Shown: positions 7,527 through 22,373 of the stretch, piece after piece
How the letters are laid out: the number at the start of each line of letters is the position of its first letter
How positions within the stretch are numbered: position 1 is the stretch's first letter
Virus record (IMG/VR): IMGVR_UViG_3300029953_000630
Length of the DNA: 28,081 nt
Source: a virus
Strand: one strand, 5' to 3'
Made by a program: the position numbers and the translations under genes
Notes under the pieces: generated by a model
The model's database searches: none
What the model saw: only the letters and a program-made list of their open reading frames with translations
Told to the model about the DNA's origin: nothing

Positions 7527-7943
7527 ATGATAGATACTGACCCCTACCTGTATGTGCATAACTGTGCTATTCGGTTGTTCATTGAATGGAAGAAACACCC
7601 CCAACTTATTGTAGCCGTCGATTTTGACGAAACCCTCTTTGATTTTCACGAGAAGGGGTACACCCACGAAAAAGTTATTGCCCTCCTGAAGCGTTGCCAA
7701 GAATGCGGCTTCTACATTGTGCTATTCACCGCCTCGGCTCCTGAGCGGCATAAATTCATGAATGACTACATGCTGGGGCGTGGTATTGTACTCGATTCCA
7801 TCAACGAGAACCCCATCCCCCTACCCTACGGAAACCACGGGAAAATCTTCTACAACATCCTATTGGATGATCGAGCCGGACTTGGACAAGCAGTTGAGAC
7901 CCTGACCGAGGTACTCAAGATGATTGATAATTTCACGACATGA
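7527..7943 (+). CDS. HAD-superfamily phosphatase/hydrolase (138 aa)
   Basis: Motif I VAVDFDETLFD (DxDxT), motif II LFTAS, motif IV LLDDRAG. Confidence 0.6.
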   Translation: MIDTDPYLYVHNCAIRLFIEWKKHPQLIVAVDFDETLFDFHEKGYTHEKVIALLKRCQECGFYIVLFTASAPERHKFMNDYMLGRGIVLDSINENPIPLPYGNHGKIFYNILLDDRAGLGQAVETLTEVLKMIDNFTT

Positions 7944-8098
7944 TGAACTTCGATGATCTCGTCTACTACGAAGCGCAGCAGTCATCCTTTCCTGATATAA
8001 ATGTGGACGGGTATTTGGCCGACCATCTTAGCAGCGGGGATTTCATCCGAGCCAGGGGATTGAGTATTACACTTGAGGAGTTGAACAATGAACATTGA
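7943..8098 (+). CDS. Hypothetical small protein (51 aa)
   Basis: ATG overlaps the HAD stop (ATGATGA). Not in the >=60 aa track. Confidence 0.25.
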   Translation: MNFDDLVYYEAQQSSFPDINVDGYLADHLSSGDFIRARGLSITLEELNNEH

Positions 8099-8278
8099 TG
8101 ACAAGAAATTTGCTGCCCTTACTGTCAGCGATAGAAACATAACACACAGATTCTCCCGTGGATAGAGGAGAGAGTCTGTGTCCTACGTGTAAGAAGAACA
8201 TGAGCGTGGGATTGCAATTACTTCCCGGCCAGACCAACACGTCATGGACGAAGTTAATCTGGTGGTGCAGGGAGTGCG

Positions 8279-9124
8279 ATGCAAAGAGAGAAAAAAAAGA
8301 TGCACCACGTAGTTCAGACCGACCTGTTCCATGAGTACGGGTACACGACCATCATCAACGCTCTGAATGAGCAGCAGGTACCCTATACGGTGGTGAAGGT
8401 GGCACCGTTCGCTCAGCGGGGTGATATTGTTGAGGCAAAATATGACTCGGATATCCCCTATGCCCATAATTTGAATATTGAGGGCAAAGTCATGGTATGG
8501 GGTTCGACCACCCCTGGGCATATTGCGGCTGAGAAGGGTTGGAAGCCGGGGCGGTTCCAGAACGACAACTTCGACATGCGGGTCTTGTTCGAGAAGTATG
8601 GCGCGAACATGCTCAGCAGCGATGCCAAGTTCTGTACCTTCGGGGAGCTAGAGTACACCGGGATGAAATTTATCCGCCCGGTACATGACTCAAAGACCTT
8701 CAGTGGCGTCGTCATGGACGGCTCCGGGCTGGCCGAGTGGAAGAAGCGGGTACTGGATGTCACCGATGGGTACTCTACCCTGAGGAGTGACACCCCGGTC
8801 ATGTACGCCAGCCCAAGGAACATTGAGCTGGAGGCACGGTTCTTCGTAGTCAACGGTAGAGTGGTCACTGGCAGCTCATACAGGACGCTAGGACGGCAGT
8901 GCATGTATCAGAGGATAGACAGCCTCAACCCGCTGTTCCATCCCCTCCTACGCTACGCACAGGGGCAAGTGGATTGGTGGAGCCCTGACGATGCATTCGT
9001 GCTTGATGTTGGGGTAGTGGACGGAATCCCCTATGTGCTGGAGATAAATAGCATCAACGGGGCGGGGTTCTACGCTTGTGATATGAATGCAGTGGTAAAA
9101 GCTCTAGAGAACATGGTACAATGA
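8279..9124 (+). CDS. ATP-grasp domain protein (DUF4343/R2K-like), paralog of 21020-21846
   Basis: C-terminal FVLDVGVVDGIPYVLEINSINGAGFY resembles the ATP-grasp L-E-x-N core. Shares RFFV(V/I)xGR with the 21020 protein. The true start may be the second ATG at 8300. Confidence 0.5.
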   Translation: MQREKKKMHHVVQTDLFHEYGYTTIINALNEQQVPYTVVKVAPFAQRGDIVEAKYDSDIPYAHNLNIEGKVMVWGSTTPGHIAAEKGWKPGRFQNDNFDMRVLFEKYGANMLSSDAKFCTFGELEYTGMKFIRPVHDSKTFSGVVMDGSGLAEWKKRVLDVTDGYSTLRSDTPVMYASPRNIELEARFFVVNGRVVTGSSYRTLGRQCMYQRIDSLNPLFHPLLRYAQGQVDWWSPDDAFVLDVGVVDGIPYVLEINSINGAGFYACDMNAVVKALENMVQ

Positions 9125-9269
9125 CGGGGAATTGGGTATTAGTATGTAGACCAAAAATTTTTGGGTTTCCAAACCACCAATAGAACCGCAAAGCAGTCAA
9201 GTTCATCGTGCAAAGGATGAGAAATGAAACGAAACCACAACTATTAGATAGATAGGGAGGGGGGAGCAC

Positions 9270-9839
9270 ATGAATGACACACTGGTACTCGACAGCAACT
9301 GGATGCCAGTAGGGTTTGTCCCATGGCAGCGCAGCGTTAAACTTATATGGGAAGACCGTGCAAAGATTGTCAAGGAAGACGAAGGCGGTCAGGTGCTCCG
9401 CTCTACTAGTTTCGAAATGGGGCTCCCTCGCGTAATTCAGGTAAAGAACGCTTGGGTAAAGAGAATGCGTACGGCTGTGCCATGCACTCGCCGGAATCTC
9501 CTTGCGCGTGACCACGCAACGTGTCAGTATTGCGGACACGTAGTGGGCACCCACGAGTACACCATCGACCACGTGAACCCTCGTTGTCAGGGTGGTGTTA
9601 CCGAGTGGCTCAACTGCGTAATTGCTTGCGTGAAGTGTAACAAGCGTAAGGGTGGGCAGACGCCGGAAGCGGCAGGGATGCCGCTTCTCAATCAGCCATA
9701 CATCCCGAAGGTTAATGACCCTCGATTCAACTTCAAGTTGCACATCAAGCACATCAGGCCGGAATGGACCGAGTGGCAGAACTGGCTGTACGCCGAGAAG
9801 GCTTCGTACGCTTATTGGAATATCGAACTAGAAAAGTAG
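9270..9839 (+). CDS. HNH endonuclease
   Basis: CQYCG...TIDHVNPRCQGG...NCVIACVKCNKRKG gives the HNH motif with a Zn-binding CxxC pair. Strong RBS GGGAGGGGGG. Confidence 0.8.
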   Translation: MNDTLVLDSNWMPVGFVPWQRSVKLIWEDRAKIVKEDEGGQVLRSTSFEMGLPRVIQVKNAWVKRMRTAVPCTRRNLLARDHATCQYCGHVVGTHEYTIDHVNPRCQGGVTEWLNCVIACVKCNKRKGGQTPEAAGMPLLNQPYIPKVNDPRFNFKLHIKHIRPEWTEWQNWLYAEKASYAYWNIELEK

Positions 9840-9920
9840 CTTTCATCCTCTGAGCGTACTCTGCTCATCGAAGATGTTGAAGTTGTATCCACAGCCGCAC
9901 GTGGAAGAAAGATTTACAGC

Positions 9921-20604: not shown

Positions 20605-20640
20605 GTGGGGGTAGGCTAGCACCCCGCCCCCACTTTCAAG
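20605..20640 (+). terminator. Possible terminator hairpin (GTGGGGG...CCCCCAC) followed by TTTCAAG
   Basis: GC-rich inverted repeat after the Ku stop. Weak U-tract. Confidence 0.3.
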
Positions 20641-20722
20641 ATTGAGCTGACAAAACACGTGCGGTCTGGCCGATGTGCTGAATTCATCGTATCCTCGCCG
20701 CTGAATATTTTTCGGAGATGAC

Positions 20723-20968
20723 ATGGAAAAATTTAGCACGAGTGCCCCCATTGAAGTACCGTCTGAAGTGAAAGCTGCTCTGGATGCGTTCGTTGAGGAC
20801 GACGGGCTGGAGTACGCCGACAACCAGCGGTATGGCTTGACCTCCGACTTGACCTCCATGGCGTTGTTCGAGGAAGCCAGAAGCCGGGGGTGCTGTGGTA
20901 GCTTTGAAACCACAGTGACTGACCTGCAAGGCCGGGAGTGGATGGTCGGGTGCAACTACGGCCACTAA
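20723..20968 (+). CDS. Hypothetical protein (81 aa)
   Basis: ORF in track. GGAGA RBS upstream. Confidence 0.4.
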   Translation: MEKFSTSAPIEVPSEVKAALDAFVEDDGLEYADNQRYGLTSDLTSMALFEEARSRGCCGSFETTVTDLQGREWMVGCNYGH

Positions 20969-21019
20969 AGCCAAACCTCGGTTGTCCGGGGATACTAAAC
21001 CACGGAGGTAGAAAGGGTG

Positions 21020-21846
21020 GTATGCTACACTTCATATTCCCGGCTGACCCGCTGAACCCGAAAAAGCTGGATGAGTATTTCGCCCCGCAGGCGTCCGCTC
21101 TGAAACGCTACCCCAACTCTGTGTACTCCACTGAGGCAGGTGGAATCTGGGGAGATTGCAGTAACAACCCGAGAGGGTTCGATGGTGCTGTGGTAGTGTA
21201 TCGTGGCTGGATGCTAAACTCGGCTGAATACCGCGCTATGACAGACAAGGTGAAGACGATGGGTGGGCGGCTGTTTACTCGCCCGGAGGACTACATTCGC
21301 TGTCACCACCTGCCGTGCTGGTACCCGCTGATAGCGGGGCTGACTCCTGATACTGTAGTTTTTCCTGAGTTCTGTTTCACCCCGCAGTTCAACCTCGTGC
21401 TGGCTCTACAGGCATTGGGGTGGGAGCACTACTTTATCAAGGACTATGTGAAGTCCCTGAAGCTGGAGAACCATCCATCGGTGACGACACCGCAAGATGT
21501 CCTCACACTGCTTGATGCCATGACAAAATTCCGTGGCAAGTTGGAGGGCGGCATCTGTGTTCGCCGGGTGGAGAAACTGACCGACGAACGCCGCTTCTTC
21601 GTTATCCAAGGACGGACTATCGGGGTTTCGGGGGAGTGGGCAAAGGTGGACACCAACGGTATTTACGACCTGCTTGAGACTGTTCGTACCCGCGTGGCGT
21701 CTCCCTTCTACTCCGTGGACATCGCGATTCGCGACGACGGCCAGCCTCGGGTGGTAGAAATTGGAGACGGTCAAGTATCAGACTTGGTTGGTAACTGGAC
21801 CCCGGAGGCGTTTGCCAACATTTGGGCCGGAGTGTACCATGATTAA
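21020..21846 (+). CDS. ATP-grasp domain protein (DUF4343/R2K-like), paralog of 8279-9124 (275 aa from the ATG at 21020)
   Basis: RRFFVIQGRTIGVSGEW...YSVDIAIRDDGQPRVVEIGDGQ. Strong RBS GGAGG before the ATG at 21020. The track start at 20938 lacks an RBS. Confidence 0.5.
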
Positions 21847-21944
21847 ATTTTGGGACAGGTTGCTCAAGTCGGAAGTCGATATAGTTCGTACCTTGATAAA
21901 CCTCACCTTGATTCACGAGGTCGATTTTTACTTGGGAGACGATA

Positions 21945-22373
21945 GTGAAGAAGAATAAAATTCCGTCCGAAAAACGAATCTATGTTGTAGTGGCCGAGAC
22001 TGTCTCCACCCCAGAGGGAGAGGTAGTTCAGGTACCGGGGAGAATCGCGGCTCAGGCTGTGCATGTGGCCAGCCGGATGAAGATGCACCAGATTATAGGG
22101 TTGAGTGAGAAGCATCAGTTGGCGAGAGCAGACGAGGCCATCACCACTATCATTCTCGGGGCTCGTGACTCGAATGAGTTGCGTCATGTACAGCGGCTGT
22201 TGGAGAAGGCGGAGATCGAGCACTACACTTTTGAAGATATCAACCCCGCCGTTTATGGTGAGGATTGTGGTGCCCCCTGTGAAGTGACAACTGCCTTGGC
22301 AACCGTTCCGGTAATGCCGGAAGAGGTGGTGGATATCCTCGACTACCTTCCTCTGTGGGCACCCCGCTCCTAG
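21945..22373 (+). CDS. PTH2-family peptidyl-tRNA hydrolase-like protein (142 aa; GTG start)
   Basis: RIYVVVAETV...GRIAAQAVHVA and TTIILGARDSNEL...GEDCGAPCEVTTALATVP resemble the PTH2 signature segments (Vxx-D-L-xx-GK-x-AAQ-x-x-HA / TV-L-A-x-GP). RBS GGGAGA upstream. Confidence 0.5.
   Translation: MKKNKIPSEKRIYVVVAETVSTPEGEVVQVPGRIAAQAVHVASRMKMHQIIGLSEKHQLARADEAITTIILGARDSNELRHVQRLLEKAEIEHYTFEDINPAVYGEDCGAPCEVTTALATVPVMPEEVVDILDYLPLWAPRS

Follow-up and report, generated by a model that had tools for sequence, protein, structure and literature searches.

The DNA of IMG/VR virus record IMGVR_UViG_3300029953_000630, a metagenome contig of 28,081 nucleotides that is recorded at JGI and ENA and that we refer to as the window, belongs to an uncultured jumbo phage of soil type and carries four predicted enzyme genes between positions 7,527 and 22,373: a small phosphatase of the haloacid dehalogenase (HAD) type, two ATP-grasp ligases of the R2K clade, and a hydrolase with the fold seen in Pth2, a peptidyl-tRNA hydrolase. 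An earlier sequence-only reading had combined these with the nearby tRNAs and an arginyl-tRNA synthetase (ArgRS) into a single coordinated toolkit for translation. We conclude instead that the four genes are probably independent accessory enzymes with separate roles, and that they do not constitute one system. The toolkit is unsupported because the genes are dispersed, because homologues of the HAD phosphatase have Prs-like and Nampt-like genes of NAD+ reconstitution as their conserved partners, and because the PTH2-like family, in which an Arg replaces the canonical Lys, is found in contexts of other kinds. Co-location of the genes is conserved only within the phage clade of the window, and a comparison across unrelated genomes did not find it conserved. 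What stands of the proposed role in translation concerns one of the two ligases, which is associated with tRNA arrays across phage lineages; the other three genes have no such support.

The R2K-type ligases and tRNA arrays

The R2K clade of ATP-grasp enzymes comprises CDC123/R2K.1, R2K.2 and R2K.3, and these families are told apart by the spacing of two basic residues after RAGNYA strand 2 and by the motif of the last strand, which in R2K.3 is ExGD instead of ExN (Burroughs, Zhang & Aravind 2015, PMC4431377). Both ligase genes of the window had been recognised as R2K-like, and both score above the Pfam gathering thresholds (GA) for R2K_3 and R2K_2: the 281-aa product of 8279..9124 (+ strand) with 53.1 bits (GA 26.3) and 45.2 bits (GA 26.2), and the 274-aa product of 21022..21846 (+ strand) with 66.5 and 36.6 bits, respectively. 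The motifs that they were said to share are present as A-RFFVVNGR in the first and R-RFFVIQGR in the second, with LEIN and VEIGDG in the respective C-terminal cores, and we refer to the two as the ExN ligase and the ExGD ligase. The ExN ligase also matches phrog_7313 (E 4.8e-48) and is 50% identical to gp297 of phage Tunturi_5; neither ligase has a match in NCBIfam. An identity as RimK was considered for both and rejected, as neither has a RimK match at E <= 0.1 in Pfam or NCBIfam, and the RimK annotation of the Tunturi_5 homologue over-reaches, given the same want of a match and the R2K arrangement of Lys residues. Most homologues of the ExN ligase begin at its residue 8, so that translation may in fact start at the ATG at 8300. 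The start previously given to the ExGD ligase, 21020, lies in another frame with 16 stops, and the gene starts with the ATG at 21022.

Among 61 aligned sequences of the ExN family R133, D137, K139, R187 and D243 are invariant, and E255 and N257 are conserved in at least 90%; the family thus has the second Lys/Arg in the loop (K139), the Arg in strand 1 of the kinase-like domain, the strand-4 Asp and, at the end, the ExN of an R2K enzyme. In 52 sequences of the ExGD family K140, K144, K147, R191, D233, E246, G248 and D249 are invariant, including the whole of the diagnostic motif (E246-I-G248-D249), and the pre-ATP-grasp N-terminal domain is well conserved, with invariant Y60, R61, G62, W63, M64, H95, P98 and W100. 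The two basic residues are four apart in the ExGD ligase (K140-x3-K144) and six apart in the ExN ligase (R133-x5-K139). Because of this spacing, the invariant ExGD and the strong conservation of the N-terminal domain we assign the ExGD ligase to the R2K.3 type, and the two genes are, as judged from these residues, members of two different R2K families. Their previous description as paralogs holds for the similarity of the catalytic cores but is a loose term for two families that are alignable only there: BLASTP aligns 73 residues (30% identity, E 0.018), and a profile-profile comparison gives a 94.9% probability (E 4.6e-8) over 106 columns of catalytic core only. Both enzymes look catalytically competent, since the Arg of peptide- and amide-forming members (R187 and R191) and the strand-4 Asp are kept, and the ExN ligase, with its full set of ATP/Mg2+ and acyl-phosphate-stabilising residues, is predicted to be an intact carboxylate-amine ligase.

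Relatives of the ExN ligase are present in 55 deposited phages, nearly all of them jumbo phages, and include those of RsoM2USA, CBB, GAP32, phages of Brevundimonas, Xanthomonas and Rhizobium, and a 735-kb megaphage. The ExGD ligase is of a mostly bacterial family: it has 2092 homologues in a large protein database, many of them chromosomal, with bacterial relatives in Deinococcus, Verrucomicrobiota, Planctomycetota, Cyanobacteria and Acidobacteriota (at least 435 genome matches); tblastn against 50,697 deposited phage records gave no match, and the family is present at 18 IMG/VR loci. A conserved neighbour of the bacterial relatives was sought and none was found, the genes standing alone. We infer that the ExGD ligase was captured by the phage clade of the window. 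Some more distant genes of the ExGD type lie within tRNA arrays, one of which contains 28 tRNAs (L162).

In the window the ExN ligase lies between a tRNA-Met gene 1,464 nt upstream and a tRNA-Arg gene 797 nt downstream. Its homologue in Tunturi_5 is within an array of ~40 tRNAs and adjoins RtcB, that of RsoM2USA starts 12-15 nt past a tRNA-Val gene within a 17-tRNA array, and that of CBB is among tRNAs with a canonical PTH2 gene 2 kb downstream. For a scan of IMG/VR loci we used a narrower alignment of the family (A5), the broad alignment (A3) being too diverse for the purpose. A tRNA gene is present within 1 kb of the ligase gene at 11 of the 43 loci, within 6 kb at 19 and on both sides at 13. 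At loci of the HAD family in similar contigs, which served as the control, a tRNA lies within 6 kb at only 8 of 80 (Fisher p = 2.5e-5), and no tRNA is nearby at any of 16 PTH2-like loci. Collapsing the ExN sequences at 50% identity leaves 28 clusters, 14 of which are tRNA-positive. The genes often start 4-32 nt past a tRNA of the same strand, and the strand of the adjacent tRNA is almost always that of the gene; we looked for a constant tRNA identity and found none, the identities varying among loci. The association is repeated in phages of Acidobacteriota, of Ralstonia and of Pectobacterium as well as in numerous uncultured lineages, and from the locus counts against the HAD and PTH2-like controls the link between this R2K gene and tRNA arrays is statistically real.

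Proteins encoded beside the ExN ligase are not conserved, the most frequent being RlaP (7/47 loci), followed by ADP-ribosylglycohydrolases and NT5C (4/47 each). An RlaP-type nucleotidyltransferase gene lies within 6 kb at 7/43 ExN and 2/13 ExGD loci and at none of 94 HAD or PTH2-like control loci, while RNA-repair genes taken together show no enrichment beside the ExN ligase (8/43, compared with 15/80 near the HAD gene). A longer contig of the same phage (L176) encodes a 646-aa RlaP (PF10127) at 167-2107, just upstream of the 5' end of the window and of the tRNA array. At four loci (L123, L124, L136 and L152) an ADP-ribosylglycohydrolase-like gene adjoins the ExN homologue, an arrangement that echoes the R2K.2-ARG-R2K.3 operons of Firmicutes (PMC4431377). 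In a 463-kb relative (L113) the homologue, at ~10001-10792, lies between two tRNA-Lys(ctt) genes, one 25 nt upstream and the other 9 nt downstream, and looks as if it had been inserted between duplicated tRNAs.

The HAD phosphatase and the PTH2-like protein

The capless 138-aa product of 7527..7943 (+ strand) scores below the cut-offs of Pfam Hydrolase_3 (15.1 bits, GA 20.9) and NCBIfam HAD-SF-IIB (20.8 bits against 41.8), but its earlier identification as a HAD phosphatase is borne out by its motifs and fold. It matches phrog_1238 (E 1.4e-18), and an alignment of 51 homologues (A2) contains all four HAD motifs, with invariant D32-x-D34-x-T36 (motif I, DxDxT), K106 (III) and D114-D115 (IV, DD) and with T68 (II, S/T) at 90% or more. 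The AlphaFold model (pLDDT 94.5) has a Rossmannoid fold whose best PDB match is BT0820 (2obb); a PDB sequence search with the single protein gave no match. The protein is predicted from these residues to be an Asp-nucleophile, Mg2+-dependent phosphomonoesterase. The family assignments on which the sequence-only reading had staked its case therefore stand, R2K twice and PTH2 in Pfam and HAD by motifs and fold.

The company kept by HAD homologues is of a different sort from that in the window. Among 80 viral loci of the family in IMG/VR (L033-L112) there is a Prs-like neighbour at 57 and a Nampt-like neighbour at 54, usually in the order Prs-HAD-Nampt or Nampt-HAD-Prs with short gaps, and neither an R2K nor a PTH2 gene lies beside the HAD gene at any of them. 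Bacillus phage BPS10C encodes Prs, Nampt and then the HAD protein (misannotated as 'phosphoheptose isomerase'), the crAss-like phage cr126_1 has Nampt-HAD-Prs, and homologues are also present in Lak megaphages and many Bacillus phages. In phages, Prs-like and Nampt-like genes that lie side by side encode, respectively, the Adps and the Namat enzymes of NARP1 (Osterman et al., bioRxiv 10.1101/2024.02.11.579819). Some NARP1 operons have the order Adps-phosphatase-Namat, the Macro-domain Adpp converting ADPR-1''-P to ADP-ribose (ADPR) (Osterman et al., bioRxiv 10.64898/2026.01.28.702374), and a further preprint describes a RyR-domain glycosidase inserted in NARP1; a literature search combining NARP1 with 'haloacid dehalogenase' returned no description of a HAD component. 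The position of the HAD family makes it most likely a further phosphatase accessory to NAD+ reconstitution, and it may be an undescribed third component of NARP1-type operons, analogous to Adpp. These partners are the clearest argument against the toolkit, and they place the family in an active area of phage-defence research. In close relatives of the window (L029) the HAD gene is likewise followed by the ExN ligase, an adjacency that is limited to this clade.

The 142-aa product of 21945..22373 (+ strand) was correctly called PTH2-like, with the qualification that an Arg replaces the canonical Lys (GR for GK). It exceeds the PF01981 threshold by a narrow margin (26.0 bits, GA 23), and in precomputed PF01981 matches only a minority of its family reaches that threshold. 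Its AlphaFold model (pLDDT 95.2) was compared with the PDB by Foldseek, and the top 14 matches are all Pth2 (3erj, 2zv3, 1wn2, 1rlk, 1q7s and 1xty among them; E 3e-6 to 7e-3, TM-score <=0.75), although a PDB sequence search with the single protein gave no match. Alignment to the Pth2 structure 24bt is colinear over the full length and matches GR to GK and D98 to the Asp of DAG. Residues Y13, G32, R33, Q37, H40, T67, D98, Y104 and a C-terminal LDYLPLW are invariant in 53 sequences. The family is small, with 114 clusters that are nearly all metagenomic, and its sole cultured homologue is gp176 of Tunturi_5. Its neighbours in jumbo-phage contigs are rIIA/rIIB, Ku, a ligase with a KYNGDR motif and a major vault protein (MVP), whereas smaller contigs have tyrosine integrases and Tunturi_5 has SbcD-like and DnaB-like genes. 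The ExGD ligase lies within 5 kb of the PTH2-like gene in five related contigs, in variable order, and is not so placed at the other PTH2-like loci; shared descent explains this co-occurrence as well as a functional link does. The Arg-for-Lys variant warns that the name 'peptidyl-tRNA hydrolase' should be passed on only where activity has been assayed.

Gene layout and flanking genes

By protein comparison the nearest cultured relative is the 309-kb Tunturi_5, a phage of Tunturiibacter (Acidobacteriota); megablast of 7000-23000 found no nucleotide similarity to deposited phages. All plausible genes of the window are on the + strand, and the order rIIA-rIIB-Ku-...-PTH2-like/ExGD ligase-MVP is common to metagenomic contigs of 155-463 kb. 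The 14.8-kb span of the four genes also contains an HNH endonuclease gene, tRNA-Arg, rIIA, rIIB, Ku and at least seven unknown ORFs, and 12 kb with the HNH, rIIA, rIIB, Ku and unknown genes separates the HAD/ExN pair from the ExGD/PTH2-like pair. Promoter and terminator scans of the window gave counts at or below shuffle expectation, so that operon boundaries could not be set, and none of the four proteins matched a defence system in PADLOC.

At the left end there is an array of 13 tRNA genes (544-6815; ARAGORN and Rfam), the last of which is tRNA-Met (6739-6815). Three of the tRNA calls are overlong, namely Trp (96 nt, 544-639), Asn (93 nt, 3981-4073) and Lys (89 nt, 5497-5585), which suggests inserts or introns; a 134-nt Rfam tRNA match at 3653-3786 is not called by ARAGORN, and an ARAGORN tRNA-His at 1297-1374 is below the Rfam gathering score. 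Within the array, along with four tRNA-Arg isoacceptors (ccg, tcg, acg and cct), is a short ArgRS-like gene (4380-5453) whose product is smaller, at 357 aa, than bacterial ArgRS (~570 aa): it contains a DALR anticodon-binding domain and a motif, HVGH, that resembles HIGH, and ~150 residues of the catalytic core are missing. A DUF5522 protein of 131 aa with a C-terminal Cys-rich domain (E 4e-14) is encoded at 6842-7237, in the gap that separates the final tRNA of the array from the HAD gene. The start of a 52-aa ORF (7940..8098, + strand; from the ORF list) overlaps the HAD stop codon (ATGA); this ORF has no family match and is also called in contigs of the same phage, and a 51-aa ORF comes after the HAD gene in the relative L029. 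The downstream flank of the ExN ligase contains the tRNA-Arg(cct) gene at 9921-9997 (+ strand; ARAGORN and Rfam).

To the left of the ExGD ligase is a Ku homologue (19611-20597; Pfam E 1.7e-20). In related contigs (L013-L024) a 268-aa protein that has a KYNGDR nucleotidyltransferase motif is encoded along with Ku, which suggests a phage Ku-ligase pair of the type used in non-homologous end joining. Directly 3' of the PTH2-like gene is the MVP-like gene (22504-24963), encoding 819 aa with matches to MVP_shoulder (E 3.5e-26) and Vault_3 and a weak match to SPFH; a homologue with 55% identity is at the equivalent position in the related jumbo-phage contigs L005 and L015. An A1S_2505-family protein is encoded at 26081-26665 (NCBIfam NF049995, E 9.6e-36), and the gene recurs between the PTH2-like gene and the ExGD ligase in L013, L014, L017 and L024. 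The last 1.5 kb of the window (26500-28081) has only Pro/Arg-rich ORFs of doubtful coding value, and the GC skew, positive elsewhere, is reversed at this end (-0.14 in 27001-28000).

Proposed roles, alternatives and known systems

As independent enzymes the four could act as follows. The ExN ligase would be made from the tRNA-array transcript. R2K enzymes would use ATP to form an acyl-phosphate on a carboxylate, to which an amine is then joined, and the likeliest reaction would be the addition of amino acids to a protein. The ExN ligase would attach at least one amino acid to a carboxylate on a protein, from the host or the phage, that takes part in translation or RNA handling, in a manner resembling that of RimK on S6, and the ExGD ligase would apply the same chemistry to a different target. 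The PTH2-like protein would hydrolyse the ester of peptidyl- or aminoacyl-tRNA and so recycle the tRNA; its remodelled active site would leave room for a different ester substrate, and because of the Arg substitution our confidence in tRNA-ester hydrolysis is only moderate. The HAD phosphatase would remove the phosphate from a ribose- or ADP-ribose-type substrate and feed NAD+ reconstitution, as a non-homologous counterpart of the Macro-domain Adpp, and would not act on translation.

Several points weigh against these assignments. The Lys expected at the end of RAGNYA strand 2 is an invariant Arg in the 61 ExN sequences (R133, within FIRP); the substitution is conservative, and Lys is present in a few distant homologues. 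In the literature searched there is no biochemically characterised R2K.2 or R2K.3 enzyme and no substrate for such a ligase. CDC123, the only R2K member that has been studied, is not known to carry out any ligation. Half of the ExN lineages have no tRNA within 10 kb, and the arrays could be no more than hotspots at which accessory genes collect. In the PTH2-like family the Lys of GK has become the invariant R33 and DAGxT has become DxNxxVY104G, with the Asp kept (D98); we take Lys and Asp to be the catalytic pair of Sulfolobus Pth2. The loci of this family have no tRNA or translation-related neighbours. The role of the HAD protein in the window is extrapolated from relatives of 40-60% identity, no Prs-like or Nampt-like gene is present in the 28 kb, so that the NARP1-operon neighbourhood is not found here, and the Prs-like genes that neighbour its relatives are only putative members of the Adps clade.

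That both ligases, the HAD phosphatase and the PTH2-like protein act with the tRNAs and ArgRS as a coordinated kit, repairing or modifying tRNAs, ribosomes or translation factors, we regard as highly improbable. The four genes do share one phage region that starts with a tRNA array and an ArgRS-like gene, CBB has an ExN homologue, a canonical PTH2, an NT5C-type HAD and tRNAs within 7 kb, and in five related contigs the ExGD and PTH2-like genes are within 5 kb of each other, although their order differs. Set against this are the rIIA, rIIB, Ku, HNH and unknown genes that occupy the 12 kb between the pairs, the HAD homologues of 80 loci that accompany Prs-like and Nampt-like genes and never R2K or PTH2, the PTH2-like loci that are without tRNAs and mostly without the ExGD ligase, and the failure of any protein, even RlaP (7/47), to be a conserved neighbour of the ExN ligase. 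A different doubt attaches to the PTH2-like protein, which could possibly, though we think this the lesser chance, be no peptidyl-tRNA hydrolase at all but an enzyme retargeted to another ester, or a binding protein, perhaps tied to DNA-end or recombination genes. The invariant R33 for Lys and Y104 in the place of the Thr context (53 sequences), the minority of the family that attains the Pfam PTH2 threshold, and the neighbours (SbcD-like and DnaB-like genes in Tunturi_5; Ku, the KYNGDR ligase, rII genes or integrases elsewhere) are all in keeping with such a change; yet every significant structural match is to Pth2 with a colinear, full-length alignment, the protein retains the Asp, the helix with Q-x-x-H and the hydrophobic motif at the C-terminus, and little about function can be read from the order of genes in jumbo phages.

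For the ExN ligase it is possible, if not the reading that we prefer, that its position in tRNA arrays is functionally meaningless, the arrays being plastic insertion hotspots and the target lying outside translation, such as a host protein in phage-host conflict. The freely varying identities of the adjacent tRNAs, the half of the lineages without a tRNA within 10 kb, the proximity, in the window and L029, of HNH endonucleases and a TnpB-like gene, and the general role in biological conflict proposed for these families (PMC4431377) would all fit; but two other jumbo-phage accessory families are far less tRNA-proximal (8/80 and 0/16), the association recurs in phages of three host groups (Acidobacteriota, Ralstonia, Pectobacterium) and many uncultured lineages, and more distant ExGD-type genes are also in tRNA arrays (L162, 28 tRNAs). 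It is unlikely that the R2K proteins make small peptide or amide metabolites, like L-amino-acid ligases, or help, in the ATP-dependent manner of CDC123, to assemble a translational GTPase. Many small-molecule ligases belong to the ATP-grasp superfamily, links of R2K genes to GNATs and a second ligase are typical of metabolite pathways (PMC4431377), and there is a faint profile match to human CDC123 (8phd, E 0.78). This match is not significant, and PDB searches with the R2K profiles gave noise besides; moreover, the phage genes and the bacterial ExGD relatives stand alone without biosynthetic partners, and both ligases have the Arg of peptide- and amide-forming ATP-grasp ligases (R187 and R191).

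We return to separate accessory enzymes, within which a more specific proposal can be made for the ExN ligase: it could be a dedicated, tRNA-array-encoded covalent modifier, or an ATP-dependent partner, of a component that handles aminoacyl-tRNA, and so reprogram or protect translation during infection. This is speculative and, as it stands, a long shot; the same slender odds apply to the candidate targets in this proposal, which would be EF-Tu (the bacterial homologue of eIF2-gamma, the client of CDC123), a ribosomal protein, or the amino acid carried by the tRNA. Were the ExN ligase to act on aminoacyl-tRNA handling, the prokaryotic R2K families would gain their first biochemical function, and CDC123, the eukaryotic translation factor of which R2K ligases are prokaryotic relatives, would have a parallel in a bacterial virus. 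The link with tRNA arrays narrows the search for targets to the sphere of translation and tRNA, and Tunturi_5 is an isolated phage with an ExN homologue that is open to testing.

None of the four genes represents a new kind of system. Roles in conflict have been proposed for R2K.2 and R2K.3 (Burroughs et al. 2015, PMC4431377), and R2K ligases and PTH2 have been recorded in jumbo phages, with host-protein modification and ribosome rescue as proposed functions (Iyer et al. 2021, PMC7824862); a link between the ExN family and tRNA arrays was not found stated in either paper. The points that appear to be new are a phage-borne R2K.3 (ExGD) enzyme, a quantified association of R2K genes with tRNA arrays, and an Arg variant of PTH2.

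Compared with the R2K clade as described, both ligases pass the Pfam R2K models and have the two basic residues after RAGNYA strand 2, the peptide-forming Arg, the strand-4 Asp and a terminal Mg2+ motif, which is the diagnostic ExGD of R2K.3 in one and the ExN of the phage-borne family in the other. They depart from it in that the ExN ligase and all 60 of its aligned relatives have Arg rather than Lys at the strand-2 position, and in that R2K.3 was described as bacterial and archaeal, whereas the ExGD ligase is phage-borne and without counterpart in the 50,697 deposited phage genomes. With RimK, the S6 glutamate ligase, they share the ATP-grasp fold, a chemistry that probably proceeds through an acyl-phosphate, and a protein target that could plausibly belong to translation, but they have no RimK match, a Lys arrangement of the R2K type and no S6-related context. 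The PTH2-like protein has the fold of Pth2 (PF01981; archaeal and eukaryotic, with jumbo-phage copies such as CBB_392), its G-[KR]-x-x-x-Q-x-x-H helix, its acidic residue and its hydrophobic C-terminal tail; it differs in the invariant Arg for Lys and in DxNxxVYG for DAGxT, and CBB_392 lies near tRNAs, unlike the family of the window. Small capless HADs of the BT0820 family (2obb, NCBIfam NF046079) are the best match of the HAD protein in sequence and fold, with ~140 aa and the same core motifs, although the match is weak (profile E 0.0098, TM-score 0.57-0.64, and 14.4 bits against an NCBIfam cut-off of 165). As to NARP1 and its accessory-phosphatase form NARP1-AP, Adpp has a Macro fold, whereas the window protein has a HAD fold and stands alone in 28 kb, but its relatives occupy the operon slot of Adpp, between or beside the Prs-like and Nampt-like genes.

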